NCBI GenBank assembly: GCA_031411135.1
Contig: JANOAN010000003.1
Span: 10,614-74,613, forward strand
Direction of reading: 5' to 3'
DNA: 64,000 nucleotides
DNA from: a bacterium
GTDB taxonomy: Bacteria; Patescibacteriota; Minisyncoccia; Phycocordibacterales; CAIZLB01
The notes beneath the pieces were generated by a model. It was not told where the DNA came from and did no database searches. It saw nothing but the letters and a program-made list of their open reading frames with translations. Position numbers and translations under genes: made by a program. Positions 43,703 through 60,920 of this stretch are shown here, one piece after another. How positions within the stretch are numbered: position 1 is the stretch's first letter; each line of letters opens with the position of its first letter.

Positions 43703-43708
43703 CGACTT

Positions 43709-43972
43709 ATGAAAATAATCATATCGTCAACTAAATTTAAAAGAAAGGTTAAAAAGTTATCACCTAAAATCCTTCTCCTTATTAAAGAAAAGGTTGCTAT
43801 TTTTAGAGAAAATGAATTCGACCAAATTTTAAACAATCACAAGTTGAGTGGACTCTATATAAACCGTAGAAGTATAAATATTACCAGCGATATTAGGGTT
43901 ATTTATAGAAAAGTCTCTGAAAATATGTACCTTTTTCTGACTATCGGCACCCACAGCGAACTGTACTCTTAA
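43709..43972 (+). CDS. type II toxin, RelE/YafQ family mRNA interferase
   Basis: An 87 aa ORF with NHKLSG...SINITSDIRVIYRK....LFLTIGTHSELY, the typical C-terminal signature of the family. Confidence 0.75.
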   Translation: MKIIISSTKFKRKVKKLSPKILLLIKEKVAIFRENEFDQILNNHKLSGLYINRRSINITSDIRVIYRKVSENMYLFLTIGTHSELYS

Positions 43973-43975
43973 AAA

Positions 43976-46900: not shown

Positions 46901-47356
46901 TTTTTCACGAATGTATTGACCAACAGAAATAAAGGCTACGCCAGCGATAATTCCAATTATTACCCTACCTGTAACACCAATAATATTATTAACGAAGGCA
47001 TATCTTAGGAAAAAAGAAACTCCGAGAATGACCGCGACTACGCCAGCAACACCTAGGATCCTTCCCCACTTCTCTTCATTATTGATAGGATTAGGTACGG
47101 CAACAACAGGAGTAACTGGAACTGGTTGTGGAATCGCTTCAGGAACTTGGTTTAAAATAGGAGCAGATTGTACAAATTGTTTTTTCTCTAAAAGACTAAT
47201 ACGATCCTCTACTTTGTAAATTTTGACTAACAATATAACAAATGCTGCAACTATCAATATAAACTCGAACATAATGATTTTAATAAGGGTTATTAATATA
47301 CTTACATTATACTCCTTATTTTTAAACACAAGAGCATTCCCACGAACCTCAGGCAA
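43976..47356 (-). CDS. very large polytopic membrane protein (DUF2339-like N-terminal half, extracytoplasmic C-terminal half)
   Basis: 1126 aa. About 20 predicted TM helices in the first ~650 aa, then a ~430 aa soluble domain, then a final TM anchor. The start may be the internal MFEFIL at about 47272. Confidence 0.6.
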   Translation of the reverse strand: MPEVRGNALVFKNKEYNVSILITLIKIIMFEFILIVAAFVILLVKIYKVEDRISLLEKKQFVQSAPILNQVPEAIPQPVPVTPVVAVPNPINNEEKWGRILGVAGVVAVILGVSFFLRYAFVNNIIGVTGRVIIGIIAGVAFISVGQYIREKYRAYSNILMGCGIGLLYLTTFASFAFYHLVSSPVAYGLLIGISALSVVLSVVDNAMVLAMIGVVGGFLTPIFMTLSNASLSQVLTYILILDVGVMVVAYVYKWRKLTTTAFAGTWLLVFMCFTNLYEKADRLGMCFFLFLYFVVFLLSSIFHHIIRKEMSDSTDLAVIVVNALGYATVTYSLLYEPFKNFMGFFMILMAMLYFAIALLSFKTNKENKLLNMFLPAMSALFLTLAIPAQLDGPWIALAWFVEAVAMYALDYNLKGKNLYAYGSIVFVVSALYTFVRYVDSMVYGKAFNFLWNERFFIFLVGIVTAYVLAFILNKAVKEGVDVTQGTKSLVAVYFVIAQVASIFILTSETSQLYSSKIYVKTESLNKEIAQLQQNYYASNTYNSSNAMTEGQTQDYQTELQQKKLDLSTVTRSLSNQKNTAVDIVWILYALISIGIGFSVKSKWFRTTGMVLMAVTAVKIFVDVWDLGPVYRIITSLVFGVIALFASFIYAKYKDKLKTGAVSLLLLGLLSIPNSTFAATDKEIIEASPYRAEISSASIVEGRPTRLIIPADVQEKSNISDIRVFTGIGVQVPYTLNYSSFGDTSEFVDLDVQNLSERNRHLEFILDNKDKTFLTHNVLRFVDTASQNNFRYIVKVYGSDTSLSLDSSNWRQLSLEEKPQYIFNFYDAATKQSVGNATISYEPSNSRFLKVVLIPFDQDSSIKNDVSFNNSLLNFRPKKVGIFGFATQSALISGLKENSVPKDVKIVQNEKNQTTEIYFDFKDKGILANGIDLIGSSTNFYRNIRLQVKNDFVEGGIGSYSNIIASPSGVWYEVGGGSIYSFSKEDGTKLESLHINFPMIKASHYQIIIDNQDNQPLNLESKVMVNSPAAVLTFVPRSSGPFYLYFGGNLNSPVYDIDTVLQNTSLKQKDLSTVVVSGVLSNPEYKPFVAVVPFSEKYSWLLNTVLVLLIIFIAILIISYVKKIRR

Positions 47357-47373
47357 TGTTACAATATTAACAA

Positions 47374-47847
47374 ATGAAGAAAGATCCTATTACATGGCAC
47401 AACCATGAATACGAACATAGAGAAAAAAGTCGTGACTGGTTCTTTGCTGTCGGAATCATTACGGTATCGGCCTTTATAATTGCAATTCTCTTTAACAACT
47501 ACATTCTATCAGTACTAATCTTACTTGGAGGTTTTTGCATGATTCTCTTTGGTAACAAAGAACCTAATCATGTCCGGTTTGAAATCAATGGGGCTGGAAT
47601 AATTATTGATAAAACCCTTTATCCATTTGGAACCCTACATTCTTTTTGGGTGGAAAATAATGACCACATTGAAATGCCATCGATGCTTTTTATTCGTTCC
47701 AATAAAGCACTGGTTCCTTTAATTCATATACCTATGATTTGGGATGTTGATCCAGAAATAGTTAGAAATCATCTTTTAGAACATATACCCGAGGAGGAAC
47801 ACTCGGGATCAGTTTCTCATAGGATTATGGATTATATTGGTTTTTAG
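47374..47847 (+). CDS. two-TM membrane protein, hypothetical
   Basis: 157 aa with a hydrophobic hairpin (WFFAVGIITVSAFIIAILF / LSVLILLGGFCMILF) followed by a soluble domain. Confidence 0.5.
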   Translation: MKKDPITWHNHEYEHREKSRDWFFAVGIITVSAFIIAILFNNYILSVLILLGGFCMILFGNKEPNHVRFEINGAGIIIDKTLYPFGTLHSFWVENNDHIEMPSMLFIRSNKALVPLIHIPMIWDVDPEIVRNHLLEHIPEEEHSGSVSHRIMDYIGF

Positions 47848-47963
47848 CTAAGTAAGTATTGACATTCATAACATAATATTTTATGGTGTACTCGGCAAAG
47901 ATCTTTGATCTGGTCAATTGTCAGAGTAATTTCACAAACCACCAACAAGAAAGGATTATTCAT

Positions 47964-48644
47964 ATGCTAAGTAATGTCAGACACGAAAGCAAAGTAAATA
48001 CCAACGGAAGAAGTGCAGTGTGTGGTTACGCAAAAGCTGAAGAAAGGAACCATCCTGTAGCCGTAGTAATATTCATAATCATACTGGCAGCACTTACTGC
48101 CGAGTTCGTGATTATCCCTTGGAAGAACAGGACGAAGACGGCAGAAGTGACTTCGGTTCAAGTTTTACCGCTCACCTACATTGAGGAAGCACGTGTAGAG
48201 AAAACCCTCCTCGCCCTCAAAGCGTGGACGGAATCGAGCGAATCCAGAAGTAAAGTCATGGACGAGACCATTCGTCAAATGACTGACGCAGTAACGTCGG
48301 AAATCTACTGGCACCAGACGAATGAAAAGGAACGCAAGGTGCTACGAGAGGTTATCGAGGGCAAGGAGAGGAAGAATATTCCCATTCCCTCTGGACTGCA
48401 AGAAAGTCTGGCAAAGTTGGGAGACTTCGAAGCTTCGATTCCCCACCTGTGGAACAAGGACTTCAACCTCCCTTCCACACTGTCGCGACTTGAGGCGGAT
48501 AAAATCAAGACAGCCGCTGGCAAGACTGTTTATGAGAAGTTCAAGAGGTGGAGAGCAGATGAAGAAGATGTAACGAGGTACGTCCTCGGTATCGTCCCGT
48601 CTCGAGCGACCCCATTGCCCCCGCAGATCAAGAAAAAGCGCTAA
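47964..48644 (+). CDS. hypothetical membrane-anchored protein (GC-rich orphan)
   Basis: I moved the start to MLSNVRH at 47964, because the track start at 47883 lies inside the promoter TTGACA-17-TATGGT (47860..47888). One TM helix (VAVVIFIIILAALTAEFVII). Terminator at 48652..48693. Confidence 0.5.
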   Translation: MLSNVRHESKVNTNGRSAVCGYAKAEERNHPVAVVIFIIILAALTAEFVIIPWKNRTKTAEVTSVQVLPLTYIEEARVEKTLLALKAWTESSESRSKVMDETIRQMTDAVTSEIYWHQTNEKERKVLREVIEGKERKNIPIPSGLQESLAKLGDFEASIPHLWNKDFNLPSTLSRLEADKIKTAAGKTVYEKFKRWRADEEDVTRYVLGIVPSRATPLPPQIKKKR

Positions 48645-48651
48645 CGCACCG

Positions 48652-48693
48652 TCGCTGATGGTCCCTTCTTTGGGGCCGTCAGCGATTTTCTTT
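48652..48693 (+). terminator. intrinsic terminator
   Basis: CGCUGAUGGUCCC-UUCUUU-GGGGCCGUCAGCG followed by AUUUUCUUUU. Confidence 0.65.
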
Positions 48694-48723
48694 TATATGA
48701 AGTTTATGGTAATTTAAGCGAAT

Positions 48724-48798
48724 GCTCTCGTCGTTCAATGGATAGGACGTAACTTTGCGGAAGTTATGATACAGGTTCGATTCCTGTCGAGAGCACCA
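48724..48798 (+). tRNA. tRNA-Arg (anticodon GCG) with encoded CCA
   Basis: Acceptor GCTCTCG/CGAGAGC, anticodon stem-loop TAACT-TTGCGGA-AGTTA, T-arm ACAGG-TTCGATT-CCTGT, and a 3' ACCA. Confidence 0.8.
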
Positions 48799-48870
48799 CT
48801 AAGGCCGATGCGGAGGCCTCATATTTCTCAACGTTTTTTCGTTGTTGAAATTGAGCACCCCGCTTGGAAT

Positions 48871-50268
48871 CTAACTTTTAGGAAGGATACCTTCTTTTTG
48901 CTGTTTTTGATTGGGCTGACTTACAGGAGGTGTGTCTTTCAACAGCTCATCTGATTCAGTCTTATCAACAGATATCTTTCCATCTTTCAAAATCAATTTG
49001 CTTTTCAGGTTTACTAAAACATGACGTTGTTCGTAAATGTTGCCATCTTTCAGGAGAAACTTCATATATTTTTTGATATCAATATCTCCTAATTCCTTAC
49101 TCTCAAATCCACCTGGATCACCGATGACATCTCTGTGAAAACGATACATTCGATTTACATCCATATCCATCTGTCCTCGTACGCCGAGTTCGTTAATGGA
49201 TAATTCATCAACTATCTCACAGAGTGATTTTATGAGATCCTCCTCACGGATATATGTCATAGGACAATGATGATCTTTTGTCCTTGAACAACCATAATAG
49301 ACGTATCTCATAATAGTTCCGTCTTTCAAAGCTTTAAACTTTTCTTCAGCAGTAACACTTGAACCACAGAGTCCGCATTTAATTAAATGTGTGTAAGCAA
49401 AATCTTTTTTGTAAATCCGTGTCGCTCGTTTTTTCTTCTTCATTTCTTCTCGCACTTTATCAAAAAGTTCCTTTGTGATGAGTGGTTTATGTACACCATG
49501 GTACCAATTACCGCTTTTCTTAGGGTACTCAAACATGCCGTAATAAAAAGTTCTAGTGAGAGCTAGTTGTACACCACTTAATGCAATATGTTTTCCGTTT
49601 GGTGATCTAAAGTCTAGTTCATCAGTAAGCCAATCTCGTATACGATGTTGACTCCAACCCTCGGACGCTTTTTCAAACATCATTTGGACTATGTGTGCTC
49701 GAACTGGATCTATCTTCACAATACCTCGATTACCTTTCTCTCCAACATTCGTGTATCCCAAAGGTGCAACCCCTGGCCACAACCCTTTTTCTACAAGAGT
49801 TCTCAAACCTCTTTTTACATTTATACCTTTAGTATCATTTTCAAGTTTTGCTTGTGATCCAAGAATCATGAGTAGAAATTTCTCGTTAGGTGAGTTAGAA
49901 AAGTTTTGATTATATGTCCTGATTTCTAAAAGTTGCTTACTATCCATAAGATCAATCAGTCTACCTAGATCACCTGCATTTCGGCTAAGTCTATCTGGAT
50001 GCCACGTAAGGATTGCATTGTATTTTCCAGCCTTTATCTCGTCGATCATTTTATTAAAAACTTCACGCTCACCAGAATTTTTAGCTGAGTGGGCTTCAGT
50101 TTTTACTGTCACTACTGAAAGATGATCTCGTTCGGCAAGTTTATTCATCTCACTTATCTGAGATTCAATTGACAAAGCTTGTCGTTCTTCGTCCTCGCTA
50201 GATTTTCTGGCGTAGAGGCAGTAGATGAGGGCTGGAGATGGCACTTCTTTTACAGCAGAGTTTTCCAT
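48871..50268 (-). CDS. large serine recombinase (resolvase/invertase N-domain + recombinase + zinc-ribbon)
   Basis: YARKSSEDE catalytic Ser region, PDRLSRN, a recombinase domain, and a Cys cluster (CGLCGS...YYGCSRTKDHHC). Confidence 0.85.
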   Translation of the reverse strand: MENSAVKEVPSPALIYCLYARKSSEDEERQALSIESQISEMNKLAERDHLSVVTVKTEAHSAKNSGEREVFNKMIDEIKAGKYNAILTWHPDRLSRNAGDLGRLIDLMDSKQLLEIRTYNQNFSNSPNEKFLLMILGSQAKLENDTKGINVKRGLRTLVEKGLWPGVAPLGYTNVGEKGNRGIVKIDPVRAHIVQMMFEKASEGWSQHRIRDWLTDELDFRSPNGKHIALSGVQLALTRTFYYGMFEYPKKSGNWYHGVHKPLITKELFDKVREEMKKKKRATRIYKKDFAYTHLIKCGLCGSSVTAEEKFKALKDGTIMRYVYYGCSRTKDHHCPMTYIREEDLIKSLCEIVDELSINELGVRGQMDMDVNRMYRFHRDVIGDPGGFESKELGDIDIKKYMKFLLKDGNIYEQRHVLVNLKSKLILKDGKISVDKTESDELLKDTPPVSQPNQKQQKEGILPKS

Positions 50269-50309
50269 AACTCATATTTTAATAAAAATACAGATGGAAA
50301 TCTAGATAT

Positions 50310-51629
50310 TTATTCCATCATCAGCTTCTTATCCTTCAGCAATATTCTACTCTTAATACAACTTAGCACTTCTCGCTTCTGCAACATCGTCCCGTGCTGA
50401 AGCATATGCTTTGCAAATGTTTTGATTGATACGTCTTTGTGCTTCTTCGATTGCCCTAGATCCACCCCAAGCACTCCAGTCTGGAAAAGTGCATATCGTG
50501 CCACTTCTTCTTGAAGCTTCTGCTTCAGTTCTGATTTATCCATGCTCATCTTGTCTATTATCGGTAACATCTCTGATATCAATATATCCTCTTTCACTGA
50601 CTCGTTCGGACAGTCTCGATCCTTCAATTTGGTGCACCTGTAGTAGACATGAGCGTTGAAACCACCATCCTTCAATTCCTTGATCTTCTCCTCTGCTGTT
50701 ATGCCCGATTCGCAGTAGGCACAGTGGAGCATTCTGGTGAAGGCAAACTCTCTGCCGTAGGCTTTTTTCTTCTCAACCCTGATTTTGTCCTGCACCAGAT
50801 CGAAAAGTTCCTTGGTGATGATCGGTGTATGCTTGCCTGTATACCAGTCACCGCTTCCAACAGGATATTCAAACACTCCGTAGTAGAAGGTCAGCCTTAA
50901 TATTCGGTAGATATTACCTAATGTCATCGGCTTGTTGCCTCTTGTTACAAATTTCACATCTTTGAGCCACCTATATATCTTCCTACCAGAGTAGTTTTCA
51001 GTGGCTACTTTTTCAAATATTTCTTTTATGAGTGGTGCTCTTACGGGATCAACTTCCACCTGACACTTTTTATCCACATTTTTGCTGTTTAGGTATCCAG
51101 TTGGTGCTGTGCATGGCCAGAGTCCCATCTGGCATCTTGCCCTTAGGCCTCGCTTCACATTTACCACCTTATTGTCGTTCTCAAGCTTTGCCTGTGATCC
51201 TAGAATCATGAGCATAAATTTCTCATTCGGCGTGTTGCTGAACTTTTGTCCATAGGTGCGTATCTCATGAAGCTTCTTCTGATCCATCAAGTCTACGATT
51301 CTTCCAAGATCACCTGCGTTTCGTGCAATTCTATCAGGTGCCCACGTCAGTATTCCATTGAACTTACCCTGATTGATCTCATTCACGATTTCGTTGAACA
51401 CTGGTCGTTGCCCCGCTTCCTTGGCAGAATGCGACTCTTGTTTTCTTGCCACAATCTCTAATCCCTCATTAATCGCCATCTTCTCCATTTCCCGTATCTG
51501 GCTATCAATGGAGAGTACCTGCTTATCCTCCTGTTCTGTACTTTTCCTTGCGTAAAGCACGTATTTAACCCTTACAGGGATTGATATTTTGGCCTCCATC
51601 CCCACTGGCCTTTGTATTGTATGATCCAT
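50310..51629 (-). CDS. large serine recombinase, paralog of 48871..50268
   Basis: YARKSTEQE, PDRIARN, and a Cys cluster (CAYCES...YYRCTKLKDRDC). The start may be the second Met (MEAKIS, 51599), which aligns better with the paralog's N-terminus. Confidence 0.85.
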   Translation of the reverse strand: MDHTIQRPVGMEAKISIPVRVKYVLYARKSTEQEDKQVLSIDSQIREMEKMAINEGLEIVARKQESHSAKEAGQRPVFNEIVNEINQGKFNGILTWAPDRIARNAGDLGRIVDLMDQKKLHEIRTYGQKFSNTPNEKFMLMILGSQAKLENDNKVVNVKRGLRARCQMGLWPCTAPTGYLNSKNVDKKCQVEVDPVRAPLIKEIFEKVATENYSGRKIYRWLKDVKFVTRGNKPMTLGNIYRILRLTFYYGVFEYPVGSGDWYTGKHTPIITKELFDLVQDKIRVEKKKAYGREFAFTRMLHCAYCESGITAEEKIKELKDGGFNAHVYYRCTKLKDRDCPNESVKEDILISEMLPIIDKMSMDKSELKQKLQEEVARYALFQTGVLGVDLGQSKKHKDVSIKTFAKHMLQHGTMLQKREVLSCIKSRILLKDKKLMME

Positions 51630-51633
51630 ACCT

Positions 51634-51683
51634 ACATTGATGACAGAGACCCTCCGAGGAGTCTAGGAGGGGTCAGTTGGTAA
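51634..51683. repeat. 50-bp intergenic repeat, copy A
   Basis: ACATTGATGACAGAGACCCTCCGAGGAGTCTAGGAGGGGTCAGTTGGTAA. About 40 of 50 positions are identical to copy B by hand alignment, and the differences cluster in a central ~10 bp. Confidence 0.8.
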
Positions 51684-52022
51684 CTAATTTCGCTCAATCT
51701 CTGATTTTTTGCTCAATCCTTTCTCTTTAAAAAACCCGTCTATCATTTTTACGTTACCTTTCGCTCCAACGTGCCAGATGTTAACTTCGTTAACTGGAAT
51801 GATTTCTTTGTAATCGTAAATTGTTACCACTGTAGGCTTTTTATGTTTTGTTTTGAAAGACCATTCGACACGCACCTTTCCATCGCTAGATTTCCACCTT
51901 TCATCAGTAACTCTGTCGTTGGGTTTACCTAGACAACTGACAAGATGCTCGTATGAAGAAATGGTATATCCACTGAAACTTGAGCCGTTTATATCCTTTG
52001 GTTCTGCTTTGATGAATTTCAT
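51684..52022 (-). CDS. hypothetical protein
   Basis: A 112 aa ORF lying exactly between repeat copies A and B. No family recognised. Confidence 0.5.
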   Translation of the reverse strand: MKFIKAEPKDINGSSFSGYTISSYEHLVSCLGKPNDRVTDERWKSSDGKVRVEWSFKTKHKKPTVVTIYDYKEIIPVNEVNIWHVGAKGNVKMIDGFFKEKGLSKKSEIERN

Positions 52023-52082
52023 ATGTTTTTTGCTTGTTAATTCGGCCTACGTCAGAGTCACTTGTAGCGGGTTTTCACAAAC

Positions 52083-52132
52083 ACATTGATGACGCAGACC
52101 ACTTAGGAAGTCTAGGAGGGGTGAGTTGGTAA
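52083..52132. repeat. 50-bp intergenic repeat, copy B
   Basis: ACATTGATGACGCAGACCACTTAGGAAGTCTAGGAGGGGTGAGTTGGTAA. It follows a 21-nt module (52050..52070) that recurs at 57981..58000. Confidence 0.8.
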
Positions 52133-52149
52133 TTTTTAGCCTTAAAAAC

Positions 52150-52179
52150 TTAGTAAATAGGCAATTTTTATGGTATAAT
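52150..52179 (+). promoter_or_regulatory. promoter of the KAP NTPase gene (extended -10)
   Basis: TTAGTA, an 18 nt spacer, then TGgTATAAT. The -10 ends 9 nt before the ATG at 52189, which implies a leaderless or near-leaderless mRNA. Confidence 0.45.
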
Positions 52180-52188
52180 GTTGTCATC

Positions 52189-54897
52189 ATGTCAGAAGAC
52201 GAGCAAGATAAAATCAGCAAATGGGACACGCCTTCCAAGAAGGACATGTTCGGCCGTGAGCCGTTTGTAGATACGATAGTAAAAACAATCCAATCGTCTC
52301 AAGAAGGCTTTAACTTGGGTGTCTCTGCTCGATGGGGAGAAGGTAAATCATCAATCTTAGAACAGCTCCAGCCAAAACTAGAAGAGTTGAATTACAAAGT
52401 CTTAACTTTTTCTCCTTGGAAATATACACAGGACAATATATCAATTAAAAGAAAGTTTATAATCGATATCTACTCCCAACTTGGAGAGGATTATGATGAT
52501 ACTGAACTATACAGTTCAACAGAAAGTCAGAAAGAACTAAAAATTGATGCTTACGATAGTATATTTTTTAATAGACTCGGAATTTTTATTCGCTACGGCC
52601 TAACGGTATCTATTTTATTTTTGGCAGTTCTTTTTATTATAAAGTATTGGTTTGGATTTACAATAAATATTACACAGACTTTTTCCACCAATTTATTTAT
52701 TCCTATACTTGCAGCACTTTTACCCATTGTCACAAAAATTACAGAAGTGACGGTAAAACATACAACCCCAAAAATAGAATCTGCCGAGCAATTTGAAAAA
52801 AGATTTAATGACGTTATAAACGGAATAATGGGCACCCATAAATCGCCGGGGAAAATAATCATTTTTGTCGATGATCTTGATCGATGCAATCATGTTGAAG
52901 TTGAACAGATACTTACAGCTTTATTTACATTTTTCAACAATAAGCATTGTACTTATGTGATTACAGCTGATCACACTGTTATTCGAAGATATATAAGTAG
53001 TTTCTTAAAGCTAGAAAACGATCTTAAAGATGATGGAACGGTAGATATGAAAAAGACAGAAGAGACTAGACAAAAAGAGGCGACGGAATATTTAAAAAAG
53101 ATTTTTCAGATTAACTTTATTGTTCCAAGGATACCTAGTGATCTACTTGAACCTTGGATAAGTGACCTACTGAAGGCCAGTCCTGTTATTGAGTTCAAGA
53201 ACCATTACGCAAAAGATTATTTAGTAAACCTCATACTTAATAATTTTCAGGGCAATCCCAGAAAGATAAAGCACTTTATTCGAACTTTAGCATTCCAATT
53301 AGAAGCAATTAATGAAAAAATCCAATGTCTTGCGGATCAAAAGGTAGATGAGAGTAAAAACCTCAACAAGGTTAAGGATTCTCCAGAGCTTTTAGCAAAA
53401 ATACTCATTCTCCAAGATAGGTTCCCTAACTTTTACGAGAAGATCGTATTAGAGCCAAAGCTTTTACAAAGACGTGAAGCTGGCGAGATGGATGAAGACA
53501 AAGAATTACAGAACCTTCTTGCTCAAGAGCCAAAATTCTTTAATTCGCTGACTCGTAATTCTACTCTGAAGACTATCGACCCTTATTACTTCCTGTACTT
53601 CTCAGGATCGACTGGCTTCGTGGAAACTGCTGTAGTCGACCCAGCGGAGGTCAAGGCTCTTGCAAGAAGTGCAGACTTTGACGGACTCACAAAAATAATT
53701 CGAGGTTTGACCGATGAGCCGAGAAACATGCAAGTTGAACATATAAAGCTTGAATTTGATTCTCCACAAATACAACCACCTGAAAAAGTAAATATTGTAA
53801 GAAGTCTTTTCCATACAGTTACTTTAATAGAAGAACCCAGCCTCAGACTCCAAAAGCTTAAAGAAATTCTTGATAATAAGACAAAGTACAAGCTTGAATT
53901 TGCATCCTTGCAGTCGGTTGATTTTGGAAACTTTATAACTTTTGCAGATATTGATGTAATAAACAAACTTTTTGTAGGTACTCCTTTCACAGATATTGCA
54001 ATGCAGACTCAAATTCTTAGTGCATTTATAAGCAAGCAAGATGAAATAAAAAATGTTGATGTTCTAAAAAAGTTTATTCAAGTTATTGCCACTGGCATTT
54101 CTAAGAACGATGCCAATTCTCAATCTTATCTAATATTGGCAAAAAAGATAAGTGATAAAAACTTTCTTGATGCAGATACGCTTCAGAATAGTTTGATTGA
54201 AACATATAAAAAGGCTCCCGATCCTTTAAAACAGGAACTTTTTGATACATTGCTTGATATTAAACCAAAGTTATCTGCACCAAAGCAACAGGAATTTGAA
54301 GAGATAATTCTAGCTGTTATTGAAAAAGACCCTATCGCCGAAAGTCTTGCGATGATTGGCAATATTCCTGTGAAGATTAATAAATCTAAATTAAGTATGT
54401 CGAAAGTCACTTCAGTAGTGAACAAAAGAATTTCTAGTTCAACAGATGTTGAAATTGCTCAGCTTGCAAATATTATGCTTCATCAAGCTATAAAAGATGA
54501 GCTTGGTCCAGATAATACAGAGCTAACACTCATTACTCTGGTCGAATTACTTGATTCTAAGGATCAACCAACGATAGCACTCATAAGAGGACGCCTTCCT
54601 GAATTCATAACTCATTCGACTAATAAGTCAAAGTTGCTAGATCAAGTATTGAAATCTGTAGAAACTGGCCCCCTTACGGAAAGTGCTCAAACGATGGATA
54701 CCTTGAAGAGCATGGATGATTTCTGGAACACCAATCCTTTTTTAAAAAAGGAACTTGTATCTAAATTGAAAGCTTCTTTGAAATGGATCGTGGATAAGGA
54801 TATAAAAAGTTTAGTAACAAAAAGTTTGGGAGAACTCGATCCTCCTCCTGAGCCCAAGAAGAAAAAAGAGTCCACTGAGCCTGCACCAGATAAATAA
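52189..54897 (+). CDS. KAP-family P-loop NTPase
   Basis: Walker A ARWGEGKSS, then two hydrophobic helices inserted into the NTPase domain (LGIFIRYGLTVSILFLAVLFII, LFIPILAALLPIV), then Walker B IIIFVDDLDRC. This insertion is the defining KAP architecture. I moved the start to MSEDEQDK. Confidence 0.75.
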   Translation: MSEDEQDKISKWDTPSKKDMFGREPFVDTIVKTIQSSQEGFNLGVSARWGEGKSSILEQLQPKLEELNYKVLTFSPWKYTQDNISIKRKFIIDIYSQLGEDYDDTELYSSTESQKELKIDAYDSIFFNRLGIFIRYGLTVSILFLAVLFIIKYWFGFTINITQTFSTNLFIPILAALLPIVTKITEVTVKHTTPKIESAEQFEKRFNDVINGIMGTHKSPGKIIIFVDDLDRCNHVEVEQILTALFTFFNNKHCTYVITADHTVIRRYISSFLKLENDLKDDGTVDMKKTEETRQKEATEYLKKIFQINFIVPRIPSDLLEPWISDLLKASPVIEFKNHYAKDYLVNLILNNFQGNPRKIKHFIRTLAFQLEAINEKIQCLADQKVDESKNLNKVKDSPELLAKILILQDRFPNFYEKIVLEPKLLQRREAGEMDEDKELQNLLAQEPKFFNSLTRNSTLKTIDPYYFLYFSGSTGFVETAVVDPAEVKALARSADFDGLTKIIRGLTDEPRNMQVEHIKLEFDSPQIQPPEKVNIVRSLFHTVTLIEEPSLRLQKLKEILDNKTKYKLEFASLQSVDFGNFITFADIDVINKLFVGTPFTDIAMQTQILSAFISKQDEIKNVDVLKKFIQVIATGISKNDANSQSYLILAKKISDKNFLDADTLQNSLIETYKKAPDPLKQELFDTLLDIKPKLSAPKQQEFEEIILAVIEKDPIAESLAMIGNIPVKINKSKLSMSKVTSVVNKRISSSTDVEIAQLANIMLHQAIKDELGPDNTELTLITLVELLDSKDQPTIALIRGRLPEFITHSTNKSKLLDQVLKSVETGPLTESAQTMDTLKSMDDFWNTNPFLKKELVSKLKASLKWIVDKDIKSLVTKSLGELDPPPEPKKKKESTEPAPDK

Positions 54898-54956
54898 TCA
54901 AATGTTGGCAACCCATGCTTCGCAAGTCTATATTTTTAAGCTAAGATTCTTCTAAC

Positions 54957-55778
54957 ATGGCAAAGAAAATTTTGACTAACATAAAACAAAAACCTCACTT
55001 CTCTCACAGGGATTTTGTTCTGTATCTTGGCAATTCAACCGATATCCTCAATGAGCTTCCAGAAAATTCCATAGATATGATTTTTGCAGATCCTCCATAC
55101 ATGCTTTCAAACGGAGGATTCACTGTTCATGCAGGAAAGATGGTAAGTGTTGATAAAGGAGACTGGGACAAAAGCAAAGGATTTGATAGCGACTACTCAT
55201 TTCATAGAAAATGGCTAGAGGCCTGCTATCGAGTCCTCAAACCCCAAGGAACCATTTGGGTTAGTGGAACATATCATTCAATCTATCAATGTGGTCACGC
55301 TATTCAGTCTATCGGTTTTCATATTCTCAATGATATAAGTTGGTTCAAGCCGAACGCTTCGCCGAATTTAAGCTGTAGGTTTTTTACAGCCAGTCACGAG
55401 ACATTGCTCTGGGCTAGGAAACATAAAAAAGCAAAGCACACGTTCAATTATGAATTGATGAAAGGTGGAGAATGGTCTGAAGATTTTATTAAAAAACCAA
55501 ATCTACAGATGCGTTCTGTATGGGCAATTAATCCACCCAAAAAAGAAGAGAAAAAATTTACCAAGCATCCGACACAAAAACCACTTTCACTTCTAGAGAG
55601 GATTGTTCTCGCAAGTACAAACAAAGGAGATATAATCCTTGATCCTTTTACCGGTAGTTCCACAACAGGAATCGCTGCTAAAAAACACGGACGAAAGTTT
55701 ATCGGTATTGATACTGAGGAGAAATACTTAGCTCTTTCTCAAAAACGCTTTCAAGATTTAGTCGAGGCTGGTAATTGA
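54957..55778 (+). CDS. beta-class N6A/N4C DNA methyltransferase
   Basis: Motif IV IFADPPY lies near the N-terminus and motif I DPFTGSSTTG near the C-terminus, which is the beta permutation. Confidence 0.85.
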   Translation: MAKKILTNIKQKPHFSHRDFVLYLGNSTDILNELPENSIDMIFADPPYMLSNGGFTVHAGKMVSVDKGDWDKSKGFDSDYSFHRKWLEACYRVLKPQGTIWVSGTYHSIYQCGHAIQSIGFHILNDISWFKPNASPNLSCRFFTASHETLLWARKHKKAKHTFNYELMKGGEWSEDFIKKPNLQMRSVWAINPPKKEEKKFTKHPTQKPLSLLERIVLASTNKGDIILDPFTGSSTTGIAAKKHGRKFIGIDTEEKYLALSQKRFQDLVEAGN

Positions 55779-56616
55779 CTATTACTACTTCGGATATCTT
55801 TCCTCTCTTGTCAGATTTTGAATTAATCATTCGGCTAGCATATACAGGAATCTGCTTATAGCCAGAATATATTTCCTTAATGAATGGTGCACTAGAATTA
55901 CTAAGCATTACATATACGCCCTTTTTATCTAGCTCGATAAATAAATCTCTAAGCTTTATTTGATCATCCTTAGAGAAACTATCTTTACTATAACTTGTAA
56001 ATGATGATGTCTCTGATAAAGGATGGTACGGGGGGTCGAAGTATACAAAGTCTCCAGCCTTAGCATTTTTCACAGCATCAGCAAAGGATCCACTAGTAAT
56101 TTTTGTATGAGAAAGCATCTCAGATACAAGTTTTAGGTTTTCTTCGTCCACAATCTTTGGATTCGTATAGCTTCCCATAGGAACATTAAATCCACCCTTT
56201 GAGTTTTCTCTATAGACACCATTGAAGGCTGTCTTGTTTAGAAAAAGAAAGTATAGACTCTTTTTGAAATCGTCAGCAGGGAGTGAATTATACTTTTCTC
56301 TGATTGAGTAATAAAACTCTTTTCTTTCTTCTGTATTTTTTGATATAAAATCTTTCTCAATTTTTCTTAAAGACTTAATCAATTCGCCAACATTATCTTT
56401 GATGTTTTTATAGGTTTGAACTAGAGTCTTGTTCACATCGTTTATGTGAGCCTTCTTTGGATTCAATGCAAAGAATACCGCACCTCCACCGATAAACGGT
56501 TCAAAATACGAATTGTACTTTTGGGGAAAGAGAGCATCTAACTGTGTCAAAAGCTGGGTCTTACCCCCAACCCATTTAAGGAACGGCTTAGCTTTCTTAG
56601 AAATATCTATCTTCAT
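55699..56616 (-). CDS. Dam-family (alpha-class) DNA adenine methyltransferase
   Basis: LKWVGGKTQLL, motif I FEPFIGGGAVFF and motif IV YFDPPY, in alpha order. Its 3' end overlaps the convergent methyltransferase gene by 80 nt. Confidence 0.85.
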   Translation of the reverse strand: MKIDISKKAKPFLKWVGGKTQLLTQLDALFPQKYNSYFEPFIGGGAVFFALNPKKAHINDVNKTLVQTYKNIKDNVGELIKSLRKIEKDFISKNTEERKEFYYSIREKYNSLPADDFKKSLYFLFLNKTAFNGVYRENSKGGFNVPMGSYTNPKIVDEENLKLVSEMLSHTKITSGSFADAVKNAKAGDFVYFDPPYHPLSETSSFTSYSKDSFSKDDQIKLRDLFIELDKKGVYVMLSNSSAPFIKEIYSGYKQIPVYASRMINSKSDKRGKISEVVIVNYQPRLNLESVFEKELSISPQYQYR

Positions 56617-56696
56617 GTATTGATTTTATCATTTTTTGATACCGATTCCTATCTTTCATTGTTCTAAGCCCTATTTTGTGATTTAATTGCATTATT

Positions 56697-57230
56697 ATGA
56701 AAGTCGGAGGTATCGGAGGAACAAACACAAAGTCGGGGCTACACTTTGAAGGAAAGGTGGATTTTCTCGAGGCCCTCAAAATAGTAAAGGGCTATGAAAT
56801 AAAGGATGACGGGTCTATCCTTTTCGAAGGTAAGGTTGTAGCTCTCAATCTCCGAAAATACAAGCTCTACGAATTTCTAGAAAGTAAAGGTGTTAATCAC
56901 AAAGAAATACTTTCAAAACGTCTTCTCCCTGATGATGCTATCTTGGTACTCAACACGAATTCATTTTACGTAATTGAAATTAAATTCCAACAGGTTGCTG
57001 GTTCTGTGGACGAAAAATTGCAGACATGCCATTTCAAAAAGAGACAGTACGAAAAATTGATGAATTCACTCGGTGTAAAAGTGGAATATATCTACATCTT
57101 AAGTGACTGGTTCCAAGCTCCTGCGTACAAGGATGTTCTCGCTTACATTAAAGAGGTTGATTGCGATTATTTCTTCGAAGAAATAACTCTAAACCGTCTC
57201 GGGCTCCCATCTCCAACAGAGACTATCTAA
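56697..57230 (+). CDS. small PD-(D/E)XK nuclease-like protein, candidate restriction endonuclease
   Basis: LLPDDAILVLNTNSFYVIEIKFQQ gives PD...x13...E-I-K. Divergently paired with the Dam-like methyltransferase, 80 nt apart. Confidence 0.45.
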   Translation: MKVGGIGGTNTKSGLHFEGKVDFLEALKIVKGYEIKDDGSILFEGKVVALNLRKYKLYEFLESKGVNHKEILSKRLLPDDAILVLNTNSFYVIEIKFQQVAGSVDEKLQTCHFKKRQYEKLMNSLGVKVEYIYILSDWFQAPAYKDVLAYIKEVDCDYFFEEITLNRLGLPSPTETI

Positions 57231-57846
57231 ATCCTGGCATTGCTGATTGAAGTACTTCTGTATAGTGTTTCTTGTCGTCGATATAATCTCTAAGCGTAAG
57301 TAGTAGGTTTTTAAACATATAAGCCTCGGTATAAATCTTTTCATTCTTGCAGAAAAGTTCAATCATTATCGCAACGTAATCTAAAGACAGGGTGTAATCC
57401 TGCTCAATGTGTGCATACTTTTGTGTAATCTCATCAACGGTTTCAAGTTTATAGTTATTCCTATCTTCAACCGATGCGAAAGGCGTAGTTCTCTCATAAA
57501 AATCAATGTAGTACTGAACTATCTCTCGAACGTCTTTGCGATACTGAGGGATTTTCAGAAGAAGATCGACAACCCAAAATGTATGAGTCGGCGGTGTCAT
57601 TATTTTGTTCACTCCTGGCACGAGAATTTTTACTACGAAATCAATATCTGGTCTTGCACCTCTACTTCCTTGAAATAGACCAATCAAAGTTCCGTCTTTT
57701 GTGACATATGTCTTAAAAGCAGTTAGACGAGGTCTCAGTTGAGCGAGATTAGTTCCATCATAATATCTAGAGTTGTATTCGTGTGACATTACAGAAAGTA
57801 TAGCAAAAGCTAGGCTGTTGGTAACTAGAGCTTCGCAACCCTCCAT
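57223..57846 (-). CDS. hypothetical protein (last cargo gene of the cassette)
   Basis: A 207 aa ORF with no recognised family. It has a 285 nt upstream region carrying repeat module C. Confidence 0.45.
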   Translation of the reverse strand: MEGCEALVTNSLAFAILSVMSHEYNSRYYDGTNLAQLRPRLTAFKTYVTKDGTLIGLFQGSRGARPDIDFVVKILVPGVNKIMTPPTHTFWVVDLLLKIPQYRKDVREIVQYYIDFYERTTPFASVEDRNNYKLETVDEITQKYAHIEQDYTLSLDYVAIMIELFCKNEKIYTEAYMFKNLLLTLRDYIDDKKHYTEVLQSAMPGFR

Positions 57847-57951
57847 ATCTAAGCTAAGGTACAGACAGATACCTCAGTTTTTGGTATCATGGTAATCACA
57901 ACAAAGACCTAACCCCTAGAAAACCCTTAGTTTCCTAGGATATGGTCGTAA

Positions 57952-58131
57952 TAAAAACCGCTACAGTATAGAAGACTCCTCGTCAGAGTCACTGTAGCGG
58001 TCGCGTCTAGGAAACTGGATGTGGGTTGAGCCGAAAGGTTCGATCACAATGGCGAGGGGTCTTCTGTCTCAAGGCTCAAAACTCCTCGCCACTTATTATT
58101 AGTTAATAAGCTTAAACCGCTACAGTGGCTT
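57952..58131. promoter_or_regulatory. structured intergenic element with three mutually exclusive 11-nt pairing segments
   Basis: ACCGCTACAGT at 57957..57967 and again at 58116..58126, with its exact complement ACTGTAGCGGT at 57991..58001. Also an internal GAGCC-GAAA-GGUUC hairpin (58028..58041), GGCGAGG/CCUCGCC (58051..57 / 58084..90) and TTGAGCC/GGCTCAA (58026..32 / 58073..79). The strand of action is unresolved. Confidence 0.4.
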
Positions 58132-59091
58132 ATGAAAAATCAAATAAGGCGTATTCCGCCATCTGGCTACTTAATTGTAGTTCTGTTTCTAGTAACTTTA
58201 ATATTTCCAAAACACGCAAATGCAACATCAGGATCATGCTCATACCACGGAGGTGTCGCATGTAGTCTCAGGTCGGATTATGACGGCAGTGTAATTTGCA
58301 ACGACGGATGGAAAGATAGTTCAGTATCATTTTCAAATGCAGATGAGTGCAAAACATCCTTACCGTCATGCCCCTTACCTTCAGGTGCGAAATCTGATTG
58401 TGGCTCACTCCGTGCACAACTTGCACGAGGACAGTTGCTCGGCACTACGTTTGGAGACAATGAGCTAGCTCAGTGCGATGCTCAGAATACAACCTACGAT
58501 TCTGCCCAGTCTGCATATCAACAATGTCTTACTTCGCAGTCAGCAATACAATCTCAACAATTTAATAACTACGTGGATCAAAGTAAAACTCAAGATCAGG
58601 CTTTTAATCAGCAGATGCAGACCAAGTACGACGCATACTGTGTTTCATCACAAGGTGTAGGAAGTGTCTGGGTTGGCGAATTCGGTCCGAACGGATCATG
58701 TAAACCAACTAATTCTGATTTCTGGAAATCGTGTCAGGGAAAAATGGGTACAAATGCAACGTACGATAAATCTTCGGGGTATTGTACTTGTTATAGCGGA
58801 TACGTTGTAGATGGAGACAATCAATGTGTAACAGAAGTTCAGCCAAGCATCCAAACTCCAGATGTTCCACAGACACAACCTGTTGTCACTACTCCCATAC
58901 AAAAAGTAATTGCAGTAAAAAAGCCGATAACTAAACCGACCGTCGTTCCAGTCGTATCTGAACAATCTACTACAACCATAGCTCAACCCATTGTCACAGA
59001 TACTCCTACCGTCAAACCTATTGAAGATAAAAGCTGGTTTGGTTCACTGTTTGAAAAAATAGGAAGCTTCTTTACTAATCTATTCCACTAA
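58132..59091 (+). CDS. secreted cysteine-rich protein with a T/P/V-rich C-terminal linker
   Basis: Signal peptide (LIVVLFLVTLIFPKHANA), about 16 Cys in the mature N-terminal half, and a Q/S-rich middle. Confidence 0.6.
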   Translation: MKNQIRRIPPSGYLIVVLFLVTLIFPKHANATSGSCSYHGGVACSLRSDYDGSVICNDGWKDSSVSFSNADECKTSLPSCPLPSGAKSDCGSLRAQLARGQLLGTTFGDNELAQCDAQNTTYDSAQSAYQQCLTSQSAIQSQQFNNYVDQSKTQDQAFNQQMQTKYDAYCVSSQGVGSVWVGEFGPNGSCKPTNSDFWKSCQGKMGTNATYDKSSGYCTCYSGYVVDGDNQCVTEVQPSIQTPDVPQTQPVVTTPIQKVIAVKKPITKPTVVPVVSEQSTTTIAQPIVTDTPTVKPIEDKSWFGSLFEKIGSFFTNLFH

Positions 59092-59094
59092 AAC

Positions 59095-59472
59095 ATGCCT
59101 AAAACCGTAGTCCACATCGATGATGATAAATTCCTTCTCAACATGTACGACATCAAATTGAGACGTGCTGGCTGTAGTGTGTACGCATTCCAGACTTTTG
59201 ATTCAAAAATTGTCGAGGATATTGCAAAGTGCAAGCCTGACATTATTGTTTCTGATATAGTCCACGACCCAAAAGACCCTGATGGCATTGAACTCTGTAG
59301 GCAGATGCAAAAAGATGAAAGGCTCAAGAATGTTCCGTTCGTCTTTTTGTCGAATACTCTTGGGTATTTAAAGAAGGTTGATATTTCAGATTTGAAGATC
59401 GCCAAACAGATAGAGAAAGCTACGACTCAGCCTGATGACGTGATAACTCAAATCCTTAACATAATAAAATAA
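59095..59472 (+). CDS. single-domain response regulator (receiver only)
   Basis: A 125 aa ORF with the HIDDD acidic pocket, a phospho-acceptor candidate in IIVSDI, and a CheY-like length. Confidence 0.6.
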   Translation: MPKTVVHIDDDKFLLNMYDIKLRRAGCSVYAFQTFDSKIVEDIAKCKPDIIVSDIVHDPKDPDGIELCRQMQKDERLKNVPFVFLSNTLGYLKKVDISDLKIAKQIEKATTQPDDVITQILNIIK

Positions 59473-59481
59473 GCTAGTTTT

Positions 59482-59877
59482 TTATCCTTGAAAATCTACC
59501 TGAAATCTATACATTCCCATTCCGCATGTTCCGTTTAAGGTTGCAACCTGTGGACTTCCTATATCAATATCTGTCGTTCCAGACTGAGGAAGTGACTTTG
59601 AAATATTCATACTTGGAATACGCACAGTTGAAGAGCAGTCGAATGTTCCATTGGTATCGAACCTAAGGATGCTTGGCACACCCGCCTTTGCAATACTGCT
59701 TCCTGGTTGGTATCCGCCCTTGGCATGAATCTCAATAATCTGTTTTCCGTCTACAATTGAGACATTGTTTGCGTTAGCGACTTGACCAGAACCTTTGGTA
59801 TTCGCATTTTTTGCAAACATAAATGCTCCTCCGATTAATACGACCGCCACGATAATTGATATAGTTGTTGCTTTCAT
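59482..59877 (-). CDS. cupredoxin-like secreted protein (copper operon accessory)
   Basis: N-terminal TM/signal segment and the pattern GTFDCSS...C.MGMY near the C-terminus. Operonic with copA. Confidence 0.6.
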   Translation of the reverse strand: MKATTISIIVAVVLIGGAFMFAKNANTKGSGQVANANNVSIVDGKQIIEIHAKGGYQPGSSIAKAGVPSILRFDTNGTFDCSSTVRIPSMNISKSLPQSGTTDIDIGSPQVATLNGTCGMGMYRFQVDFQG

Positions 59878-59890
59878 AAAGATGATTATA

Positions 59891-60916
59891 CTAAAAATTA
59901 AAGACTGGTGGAATGACCCCGATCACCACTAAACTGTTAATAAGGTTAAAGATTGCAAACATGATGACTACCAGCCCTGCTGACTTGAAGAATATGCCTG
60001 ACTTAGAGCTATTCTTGATACTGAACGAACTGAAGCTTACCAAGGCTAGTACAGGTAATGTCCCTAAAGCGAATGACAGCATTGTTAATCCTCCTTTTAG
60101 GAAACTGCCTGTAGTAAGTGTGTAAAGTTGCATTGATTGTGTAAATCCACACGGCAGAAAAAATGTAGCAATACCAACAAGGAGAGGTGTAAGAGTATGA
60201 TTAAACTTCGAAACATCAAGTGCATGCTTTGACATAAATTTCGGCATTGAGGGCTGTAGTTTTTTAGCCCACTGGAATACATCAAGAAGATTGATTCCAA
60301 GTATGAGCATAACAATTCCGATTATGAGACTTAAGGCAAATGATGCATTGGTACTTAAGGTGAATGCAGAGCCGATTGCACCTATCACTCCTCCGAGAAT
60401 AAAAAATGAGACTATTCGTCCGCCGTGGAACATGAGCTGTGGACGAATTTTGTCTCCTTCTTTTGCAAATGTTGCCGACATCGAAAGAACTATCCCTCCG
60501 ACAACAGCCATACAAGTTGAAAGTGAAGCAATGATACCGATTACAAATGCCGTACCATAAGTTACGTTGCCTCCACCCACAAGATTAATTAAACCAATTT
60601 TTTGCAGACCGAAAAACAGGACTGCAAAGCCTAATGCGATAGGTACAGCAATTTTAAAATCTGCCCAGTTCTTTTGAACCACTCGTTTTTCTATAGAAAC
60701 AGTATAACCATGAGGCTTGAGTGGAGCAGTAAGCTCCTCTGCGATCTGTTCAGGTGTCTTATCACCAAAATTTCCAGAAACTTCCACCGAATGATTCTTG
60801 AGACTTGCTTTAACAAAACTAATATTAGACAGCTCTCCAAGCTCACTTTCGGTCATAAGAACACAAGCGTTGCAATGTATACCGTGAATATGAAAAGTGT
60901 ATTTTTGTTCAGTCAT
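59891..60916 (-). CDS. HMA-domain fused polytopic membrane protein (DsbD_2/TauE-like family)
   Basis: I moved the start to MTEQKY at 60916, 4 nt after the copA stop. N-terminal HMA motif GIHCNAC, then 6-7 TM helices with LSTCM and LPCGF motifs. Confidence 0.65.
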   Translation of the reverse strand: MTEQKYTFHIHGIHCNACVLMTESELGELSNISFVKASLKNHSVEVSGNFGDKTPEQIAEELTAPLKPHGYTVSIEKRVVQKNWADFKIAVPIALGFAVLFFGLQKIGLINLVGGGNVTYGTAFVIGIIASLSTCMAVVGGIVLSMSATFAKEGDKIRPQLMFHGGRIVSFFILGGVIGAIGSAFTLSTNASFALSLIIGIVMLILGINLLDVFQWAKKLQPSMPKFMSKHALDVSKFNHTLTPLLVGIATFFLPCGFTQSMQLYTLTTGSFLKGGLTMLSFALGTLPVLALVSFSSFSIKNSSKSGIFFKSAGLVVIMFAIFNLINSLVVIGVIPPVFNF

Positions 60917-60920
60917 AAAT

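Follow-up and report, generated by a model that had tools for sequence, protein, structure and literature searches.

Phages and genomic islands that integrate by means of a large serine recombinase (LSR), among them phiC31, Bxb1, TP901-1, A118 and SCCmec with its CcrAB recombinases, are among the closest described counterparts of the locus analyzed here, which lies at 48.8-58.1 kb of a 64,000-nucleotide stretch of a Patescibacteria contig (JANOAN010000003.1, positions 10,614 to 74,613; the whole stretch is hereafter called the window). Our comparisons indicate that this interval is quite probably the arm that holds the integrase and cargo of a phage-like integrative element, one of a type characteristic of Patescibacteria (Paceibacteria-type bacteria of the candidate phyla radiation, CPR). 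Similar to the LSR phages and islands, the locus encodes three-domain LSRs, has its recombinase at the end of the element beside a putative attachment site, and is associated with terminase genes. It differs from them in that its target is the 3′ flank of many tRNA genes and in that no capsid or tail genes were seen. Tyrosine integrases, and not LSRs, typically target tRNA 3′ flanks, and our literature search for tRNA-targeting LSR elements in CPR bacteria found nothing relevant.

A second group of counterparts is formed by phage satellites, namely P4 and islands resembling the phage-inducible chromosomal islands (PICI), which are likewise small tRNA-side elements with an integrase, packaging-related genes and a variable slot for defence genes. 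The present element differs from these in possessing both a small and a large terminase, in lacking recognizable replication/primase or capsid-redirecting genes, in using a serine recombinase as its integrase and in having no known helper phage; a satellite status would thus be an analogy only. The third component, the LOOT RNA motif (RF03000), was described by Weinberg et al. 2017 (PMC5737381), and the literature searched gives no function or genomic association for it; compared with the published motif, the copies examined here are consistently flanked by a large terminase gene on one side and a divergent LSR gene on the other. An integrative element that carries a restriction-modification (R-M) system and a KAP-family NTPase as cargo is known in kind. 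What goes beyond the prior descriptions that we found is the link of tRNA-flanking serine integrases to a minimal terminase module and the orphan LOOT RNA, together with PF20472 as the probable nuclease of a DpnII-like cassette and a recurrent 188-aa companion protein.

In the mechanism that we propose, the LSR would insert the element immediately 3′ of a tRNA gene, here tRNA-Arg(gcg). The core order in relatives runs ParB-methylase, small terminase, large terminase, LOOT, LSR, junction motif and tRNA, with LOOT on the strand opposite to the LSR and divergent from it, and variable genes occupy three slots (LSR-LOOT, LOOT-terminase and LSR-tRNA). The LSR-LOOT slot is here occupied by the KAP NTPase, a DpnII-style R-M cassette and the 188-aa protein as independent modules. 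Within the cassette, the DpnM-like and the DpnA/CcrM-like methylases would protect host DNA, likeliest at GATC, while the PF20472 nuclease would cut unmodified DNA.

Recombinase genes at the 3′ ends of tRNA genes

The two recombinases of the locus, LSR1 and LSR2, both contain the resolvase domain with the nucleophilic serine (PF00239, 76 and 75.5 bits) and C-terminal domains, and hence belong to the LSR family. PF07508 scored above its cutoff in both proteins, and the zinc ribbon PF13408 reached 33.4 bits in LSR1 (cutoff 25.3) and, just under that cutoff, 23.4 bits in LSR2. Their translations have kept the catalytic motifs YARKSS/YARKST and DR(L/I)(S/A)RN, which read YARKSS and DRLSRN in LSR1. 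A scan with LSR2, in which one genome per species was considered, returned 370 relatives. The counts of LSR loci given here rest on the 80 listed loci, which are nearly all from Patescibacteria/CPR (e.g. Paceibacterota and Parcubacteria), with a few records labelled otherwise; the roughly 220 comparison loci and contigs that were fetched in total carry the labels L001-L223.

The relatives of LSR2 revealed a recurrent geometry with respect to tRNA genes. Among the 72 LSR loci with enough downstream sequence to judge, the first downstream tRNA gene stands tail-to-tail with the recombinase, on the opposite strand, in 53 (at a distance of ≤300 nt in 17) and on the same strand in none (0/72), and only four loci have a tRNA gene ≤5 kb upstream of the LSR. 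The expectation, raised in the preliminary description of this DNA, that the locus is mobile DNA beside a tRNA gene with defence-type cargo is borne out by this adjacency and by the LSR-LOOT cargo, which differs between genomes. The tRNA genes adjoined by the clade in these 72 loci belong to 22 species; an LSR clade found at no fewer than 22 tRNA species with a common junction motif is unusual for serine integrases and could be of interest to those who mine LSRs for genome engineering.

Wherever the junction was inspected, the motif CAAGGYCGAYGCGGAGGCC starts 2-5 nt past the 3′ end of the tRNA gene. It is present beside the tRNA gene downstream of the LSR, in the same orientation, in 17 of the 21 loci checked (LSR2-type loci, 61-83% identical, plus L029), and the motif-bearing junctions that were inspected comprise Arg-gcg, Arg-ccg, Arg-tct, Glu-ctc, Glu-ttc, Gly-ccc and Lys-ttt. 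The window holds a single occurrence, against 0.01 expected. The tRNA-Arg(gcg) gene belongs to the host, the left junction of the element lies at its 3′ end, and the motif next to it would be the element-side arm of the left attachment site (attL-like), with the crossover placed at this junction. The source sample itself provides a further view of the insertion point. A Logan contig of run SRR20217193 (L001), identical to window 40922-48750, stops inside tRNA-Arg at 48750, while a second contig of the same run spans the island, which implies that the assembly graph branches at the site of insertion.

Two additional observations concern the use of tRNA sites. Locus L018 contains two direct copies of the junction motif (14000-14018 and 17439-17457), 3.4 kb apart, of which only the second adjoins a tRNA gene; the pair looks like a tandem accretion of two elements at one tRNA gene. 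Elsewhere in the window, at 26695-35776, the tRNA genes follow the order Leu(gag), Val(tac), Arg(tct), Ser(tga), which is common to L011 and L013. In these two loci an LSR2 orthologue and LOOT are inserted at tRNA-Arg(ccg) beside tRNA-Leu(gag), and the same site in the window is free of the element.

The LOOT RNA and the terminase module

The LOOT RNA at the far side of the cargo was overlooked in the preliminary description. It scored 52.7 bits against a gathering score of 46.4, and 94 bits with a covariance model of our own; compensatory changes occur at 15 of the 31 predicted pairs in a six-sequence alignment, and its multi-hairpin fold with GNRA loops places it in RF03000. An adjoining region that is 82% conserved with L002 holds a hairpin followed by a T-rich stretch, which is possibly the LOOT terminator, a candidate read from the letters (Table 1).

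The association of LOOT with the recombinase was also approached from the RNA side, by an independent metagenome scan with a LOOT pattern. The scan yielded 120 loci, 66 of which have ≥1.6 kb of sequence upstream of LOOT. An LSR lies upstream on the opposite strand in 35 of these 66, with its start 77-170 nt away in 17 and with 1.3-7.5 kb of cargo between the two in the remaining divergent loci; a further locus has a weak same-strand LSR-like match upstream, and one more has a match downstream only. A large terminase gene was found downstream of LOOT in 23 of 56 loci. Among the fetched loci, LOOT diverges from the LSR and lies right upstream of it in L011 (9725-9842), L013 (9725-9844), L054 and L057, and further upstream in L031, L039, L082 and L002; another copy was located in L221 (8564-8681). 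In L220 (8946-9067) and L086 (8254-8376), LOOT is on the same strand as the LSR; these are exceptions to the orientation rule and possibly inversions.

We rejected the idea of LOOT as a fixed gene of the host that serves as the integration target, since LOOT accompanies the LSR at many different tRNA genes. We tentatively consider that LOOT may instead be a working part of undescribed, minimal, terminase-encoding Patescibacteria elements whose integrase uses the generic 3′ end of almost any tRNA gene (T-arm and acceptor), although the odds for this proposal are clearly below even. By analogy, LOOT could act as an RNA immunity or switch factor like the CI RNA of satellite P4, or as a packaging RNA like the pRNA of phi29. 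Its reproducible position between the large terminase and the divergent integrase now makes such a function testable.

The terminase module consists of a ParB-methylase, a small terminase and a large terminase (phrog_38, E=3.6e-75), and no other gene families were common to the LSR-upstream regions of nine diverse loci. Of the roughly 220 fetched loci, 48-60 contain this module together with the LSR and LOOT. For the genome under study it was located on L222, a contig 100% identical to the window that extends the same genome to window-equivalent 73.2 kb (window coordinate = 73216 minus L222 coordinate); positions 194-4700 of this contig, equivalent to ~68.5-73.0 kb, encode the ParB-methylase, a second methylase, the small terminase and the large terminase. 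Since the module is located ~10 kb beyond LOOT and outside the window, the island probably extends past 58131, and the interval singled out in the preliminary description is probably only the integrase-side arm of a larger element. Other copies appear to be more compact; in L073, housekeeping genes 1.3-2 kb beyond the methylase imply that some copies measure ~9 kb and contain no capsid or tail genes.

Extent of the element and alternative readings

Several results weigh against reading the locus as part of a phage-like integrative element. We searched as far as window-equivalent 73.2 kb and found neither an inverted or direct partner of the junction motif that would mark a right end (attR) nor displaced tRNA 3′ fragments or shared 9-12-mers. 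No empty tRNA-Arg(gcg) site with the right flank of the window was recovered; homologues of the 157-aa flanking protein mark tRNA-Arg(gcg) in several loci, none of which has that right flank, and in the flanking-protein search for empty sites the exact 319-aa protein of the right flank was not on record. The gap between LOOT and the terminase module is ~10.5 kb here and filled with host-like genes (copper resistance and two-component), compared with 0.7-4.1 kb elsewhere, so that the module could be part of another element or of a rearranged one. No capsid, portal or tail genes occur among the genes common upstream of the LSR in the nine loci or in L073, and the term phage-like therefore derives from the terminase genes alone. 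The coupling of LOOT and recombinase is also far from universal, as 29 of the 66 LOOT loci have no LSR in the available sequence and LOOT was detectable in only ~10 of the 80 LSR loci. Finally, GATC, the likeliest target of the R-M cassette, shows an observed/expected ratio of 0.80 (GANTC ~1.0), a mild depletion that is too weak to decide specificity.

The locus thus combines marks of two classes of element. It shares with prophages an integrase (phrog_95) and packaging genes, and no capsid, portal or tail genes were seen; it shares with tRNA islands the insertion at a tRNA gene, and neither a displaced fragment or repeat nor an empty site was found. Genome comparison, which had been proposed for defining the island ends and empty sites, accordingly delivered the left junction and neither a far end nor an empty site. 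It should be considered here that LSRs need no far-end repeats, and the absence of such repeats consequently does not argue against mobility.

The missing attR and empty site, the copper and two-component genes of host-like character that separate LOOT from the terminase, and the internal repeat scars described below would also be expected of an immobile relic, that is, a decayed and fixed remnant of old tRNA insertions in which the recombinases were kept by chance or reused. We consider this explanation unlikely. All ORFs (open reading frames) of the locus are intact in translation, those of the two LSRs and of the complete R-M trio among them; the branch point in the assembly graph of the source sample falls exactly in the tRNA gene; and closely related LSRs (78-94% identical) are found at different tRNA genes in different genomes, which implies recent movement.

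The tandem recombinases

LSR2 is located 41 nt upstream of LSR1, with only an AT-rich, promoter-like stretch between them, and the two proteins are 48% identical. The preliminary description had likened them to the CcrA/CcrB recombinases of SCCmec and proposed a two-recombinase element. The tandem pair itself is real and recurs in L029, where a contiguous LSR2-LSR1 pair, 79% identical at the DNA level over 2.9 kb, stands beside tRNA-Lys(ttt). As the pair is found at different tRNA genes in the window and in L029, it appears to have moved as a unit at least once. Membership in the CcrA/CcrB group, in contrast, failed on score, pairing and target. The CcrB model NF047343 gave 119/122 bits against a cutoff of 900 and the CcrA model NF047344 gave 53/49 bits against a cutoff of 700, and 77 of the 80 related loci have no second LSR of the same family nearby, with tandem members confined to L029, L038 and L041. 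A CcrAB-like pairing of LSR1 and LSR2 is therefore possible but unproven.

The same evidence bears on whether the two recombinases form an obligate pair, either in the CcrA/CcrB sense or with one enzyme for each attachment site or direction of the reaction. Such a pair would account for two contiguous (gap of 41-55 nt), co-oriented and intact genes in both the window and L029, for their joint presence at Arg-gcg and at Lys-ttt, as expected of genes moving as one unit, for the catalytic motifs retained in both and for the tandems of L038 and L041. It is nevertheless a doubtful explanation. In addition to the prevalence of unpaired LSRs and the distant Ccr scores, LSR2 orthologues (73-83% identical) in L011-L028 have no adjacent LSR1-type partner, and L218 carries the same cargo with an LSR2 orthologue as its single LSR. 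LSR2 and LSR1 are closer to the singleton LSR of L002 (58% and 54% identity, respectively) than to each other, and their divergence between the window and L029 is unequal (94% for the LSR1-type copy next to tRNA-Lys and 81% for its partner), which points to separate histories. The promoter-like character of the 41-nt spacer likewise counts against an obligate pair. LSR1 would, in our proposal, be either an additional integrase or a passenger that remained from a previous tandem insertion or fusion.

The restriction-modification cassette

The described cassettes closest to the R-M genes of the locus are DpnII, MboI and LlaDCHI, which likewise combine a DpnM-like Dam methylase, a second, beta-class methylase of the CcrM/HinfI/DpnA kind and a single small endonuclease gene. 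The Dam-type methylase of the window matched TIGR00571 (306 bits), and its best solved relative is DpnM (2dpm; 256 bits, E=5e-75), ahead of Escherichia coli Dam (145 bits). The beta methylase matched PF01555 (210 bits) and the MTase_II model of PADLOC (331 bits); its best solved relative is the methylase domain of CcrM (211 bits), followed by chains labelled DpnA (109 bits), which assigns it to the CcrM/HinfI/DpnA-like group. The two methylase genes converge and their 3′ ends overlap by 80 nt. The orientation of the trio thus alternates (+ - +), which is one difference from DpnII; the other is the endonuclease, here a 177-aa protein of the PF20472 family without a close solved relative.

Motif and fold identify the 177-aa protein as a probable PD-(D/E)XK restriction endonuclease. 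The P-D...E-x-K motif is invariant in an alignment of 35 sequences, and the fold matches restriction enzymes. Its Pfam match to PDDEXK_11 (PF20472) is weak (E=2e-4, below cutoff), it has no match to PF04556, the DpnII/MboI endonuclease family, and a sequence search of solved structures with this protein and the neighboring 207-aa ORF gave nothing at E<=10. No restriction endonuclease model of PADLOC matches it either, and because PADLOC has no model for PF20472, the locus would be called 'orphan methylases'. Compared with the DpnII type, the cassette thus has the DpnM-like methylase and the beta-class second methylase, while its nuclease is not of PF04556. We conclude that the cassette is probably DpnII-like, with two methylases predicted to protect GATC and a small nuclease predicted to cut DNA that is unmodified there, and that PF20472, with ~3900 homologues, is probably the restriction enzyme of a widespread cassette of this kind.

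The distribution of the trio lends weight to this assignment. It is present in L002 (nuclease 87% identical), where it stands next to a single LSR and is followed by CHAT genes, in L220 and L221, and in Helicobacter, where its setting is chromosomal with no LSR. In Neisseria gonorrhoeae (L223; NZ_CP119142, 6934-15386, a chromosome filed as a plasmid), the region after leuS encodes Drg, an enzyme of the DpnI family, a disrupted beta methylase (55%) and a truncated homologue of the nuclease (46%). NgoAXVI and NgoAXIII were considered as the gonococcal homologue, and the locus proved to be leuS-drg, that is, the dam/drg locus NgoAXI. It looks like the remnant of a Dam, DpnA-like and nuclease cassette in which a DpnI-family enzyme has replaced Dam, a further likeness to the DpnII systems. 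This replacement mirrors the DpnI/DpnII cassette swap of pneumococci. Dam at the neisserial dam/drg locus has been reported to give GATC methylation (PMC6789123).

Alternatively, the methylases might be orphans or have a regulatory task, and the 177-aa protein, instead of being their restriction partner, could be a nuclease of the repair or Vsr-like kind. The absence of a fitting endonuclease model in PADLOC, the good score of the Dam gene on the PADLOC 'orphan methylase' model, the PF20472 match below cutoff and the barely depleted GATC would all fit this explanation, which we nonetheless regard as improbable. The neighborhood of nuclease and methylase genes is kept across four phyla while the gene order is shuffled, the motif and fold are those of restriction enzymes as described above, and the neisserial nuclease and methylase both decayed after Dam had given way to the methyl-dependent Drg. 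A practical consequence is that the models of defence-finding programs miss PF20472 and score loci of this kind as orphan methylases.

The trio has one further companion. The 207-aa ORF, first taken for an orphan, has 274 homologues at 70-84% identity, whose length of 188-196 aa sets the start near 57789 and the protein at 188 aa. Its predicted structure (pLDDT, predicted local distance difference test, of 87) gave no informative fold match. The gene adjoins the trio in the window, L218, L220 and L221, in three gene arrangements, and is absent from the trio loci of L002, Helicobacter and Neisseria. As the only protein with a repeated link to the trio, it is regarded as a putative accessory of the cassette.

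The KAP NTPase as separate cargo

Membership of the large NTPase in the KAP family was confirmed by PF07693 (93 bits, E=2.6e-26, cutoff 20), by a Walker A motif within GVSARWGEGKSS (GEGKSS) and by a Walker B motif, IIIFVDDLD. The protein is 902 aa long when read from the ATG, and the open frame from the TTG at 52126 encodes 923 aa. Two long hydrophobic stretches, IFIRYGLTVSILFLAVLFIIKYWFGF and LFIPILAALLPIV, which are candidate transmembrane segments, were read from the translation between Walker A and Walker B, and the C-terminal ~500 residues are without annotation. The described proteins most similar to it are PifA of the F plasmid and QatA, with which it shares the KAP P-loop domain, hydrophobic segments after Walker A and a setting among defence genes on mobile DNA. 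It differs from them in that it aligns to the QatA, PifA and PDC-S20 profiles only partially and has no QatB, QatC or QatD partners. The score of 71 bits on the QatA model NF041923 (cutoff 600) and the absence of Qat partner genes from the neighborhood place it outside Qat.

Approximately 45 full-length orthologues were identified, all in Patescibacteria. The KAP gene occurs with the R-M trio, in the order of the window, in L218/L219. Orthologues without the trio, 47-73% identical, are found beside a tRNA gene and an LSR (L213), after a helix-turn-helix gene beside an LSR (L212), downstream of LOOT (L201 and L131) and in a terminase-bearing region with other methylases (L215). Being found both with and without the cassette, KAP is a separate piece of cargo. 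Sister islands carry other genes, namely AIPR, Shedu SduA, CHAT, DUF4238, Ltp and a type III R-M system, and from this neighborhood we infer that KAP may serve as a stand-alone, membrane-type sensor/effector resembling those of abortive infection.

The preliminary description had further suggested that KAP, the two methylases, the nuclease and the 207-aa protein act as one system; the occurrence of the trio without KAP and of KAP without the trio contradicts this, and a PADLOC run on the island, as had been recommended, recognized no multi-gene system. The whole block of LSR, KAP, beta methylase, Dam methylase, nuclease and 207-aa ORF recurs once in the same order, in L218/L219 beside tRNA-Lys, with L218 and the window collinear over the stretch between LSR2 and the 188-aa gene and the KAP there only 65% identical, a recurrence that shared island ancestry explains at least as well as function. 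A composite defence system, in which KAP would for example sense infection and control the nuclease, could draw on this conserved block in otherwise diverged genomes and on the three arrangements that join the 188-aa protein to the trio, but it is hardly credible given the trio without KAP in L002, L220, L221 and Helicobacter (and a decayed remnant of it in Neisseria), the KAP genes with other neighbors in the five loci named above and the PADLOC result. We therefore interpret the cargo as familiar, independent modules on mobile DNA and not as a new composite defence system. Patescibacteria often lack CRISPR, and our comparisons suggest that a large part of their defence repertoire resides on small elements of this type.

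The 112-aa reading frame and the small repeats

The 112-aa ORF that follows the recombinases had no Pfam, NCBIfam, PADLOC or PHROG match. A 59% homologue is located upstream of the LSR pair of L029, and the ORF is absent from L218; a role as a recombination-directionality or regulatory factor is only a guess. The ORF is flanked by a 50-nt direct repeat (repeats A and B, 80% identical). Repeat A contains the hairpin GACCCTCC...GGAGGGGTC and is homologous to the region upstream of the LSR in L011, L013, L022 and L218. Shared repeat modules had been proposed to bracket the island; repeats do exist, but they are small, and the 50-nt pair flanks the 112-aa ORF only.

Between the ORF and repeat B, a 21-nt piece copies part of the 3′ half of the LOOT P2 hairpin (57981-58000). 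The surrounding segment, 52050-52132, shows 78% similarity to the DNA that separates the LSR and methylase genes in L002, and the LOOT-like piece is restricted to the window and the L002 lineage; the 18 other loci with cargo between LSR and LOOT have no such copy. A segment of 449 nt (51684-52132), which comprises the 112-aa ORF, the LOOT-like piece and repeat B, is missing from L218. The small repeats are thus probably scars of recombination between related islands and not functional brackets. Together with matches of 9-13 nt in L039, L054 and L031, the 21-nt copy gave rise to the idea that LOOT pairs with the integrase leader; cognate and non-cognate pairs share one distribution of longest matches, and the idea was rejected as a general rule.

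Feature coordinates and neighboring genes

Each feature of the earlier gene list was recovered in its place by the ORF list, domain scans, ARAGORN and Rfam. The coordinates, together with those of the features added here, are collected in Table 1.

Table 1. Features of the integrase-side arm and of the adjoining right flank, in window coordinates.
Feature	Position	Strand	Basis or remark
tRNA-Arg(gcg)	48724-48798	+	ARAGORN; Rfam tRNA, 62 bits
Junction motif TAAGGCCGATGCGGAGGCC	48800-48818	+	Consensus CAAGGYCGAYGCGGAGGCC
LSR1, 465 aa	48871-50268	-	Pfam Resolvase/Recombinase/Zn_ribbon_recom
LSR2, 439 aa	50310-51629	-	Same Pfam domains; phrog_95 integrase, E=6e-59
Repeat A, LSR2 leader/promoter region	51634-51683		Repeat search; homology to other LSR upstream regions
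112-aa ORF	51684-52022	-	Co-oriented with the LSRs
21-nt LOOT-hairpin copy (52050-52070), then repeat B (52083-52132)	52050-52132	+	
KAP-family P-loop NTPase, 902 aa	52189-54897	+	PF07693
Beta-class N6-adenine DNA methylase (M2), 273 aa	54957-55778	+	PF01555
Dam/D12 alpha-class methylase (M1), 305 aa	55699-56616	-	TIGR00571
177-aa PD-(D/E)XK nuclease, PF20472 family	56697-57230	+	Putative restriction endonuclease
188-aa conserved protein (ORF of 207 aa)	57223-57846	-	Probable start 57789
LOOT RNA, Rfam RF03000	57906-58045	+	Rfam covariance match
GC-rich hairpin GGCGAGGGG...CTCCTCGCC, then T-rich stretch	58051-58091	+	Read from sequence
Possible extra cargo: 319-aa protein, receiver domain, cupredoxin, HMA-DsbD, Cu P-type ATPase, CsoR	58132-63551		Pfam

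Directly after LOOT, at 58132-59091 on the + strand, lies the gene of the 319-aa protein, which is Cys-rich, has a signal-like N-terminus and matches no family; in L200, LOOT is likewise followed directly by a 42% homologue. It is followed, from 59095-63551 and onto L222, by a copper cluster (cupredoxin, HMA-DsbD, Cu P-type ATPase and CsoR) and a two-component system, which separate LOOT from the terminase module. L211 and L064 likewise have copper clusters beside their LSR/KAP islands, and such clusters may be island cargo. To the left of the island, and not part of it, a gene at 43976-47356 on the - strand encodes a multi-pass membrane protein of 1126 aa (DUF2339), and a gene for a YafQ-like toxin is found further upstream (L001 2788-3051).

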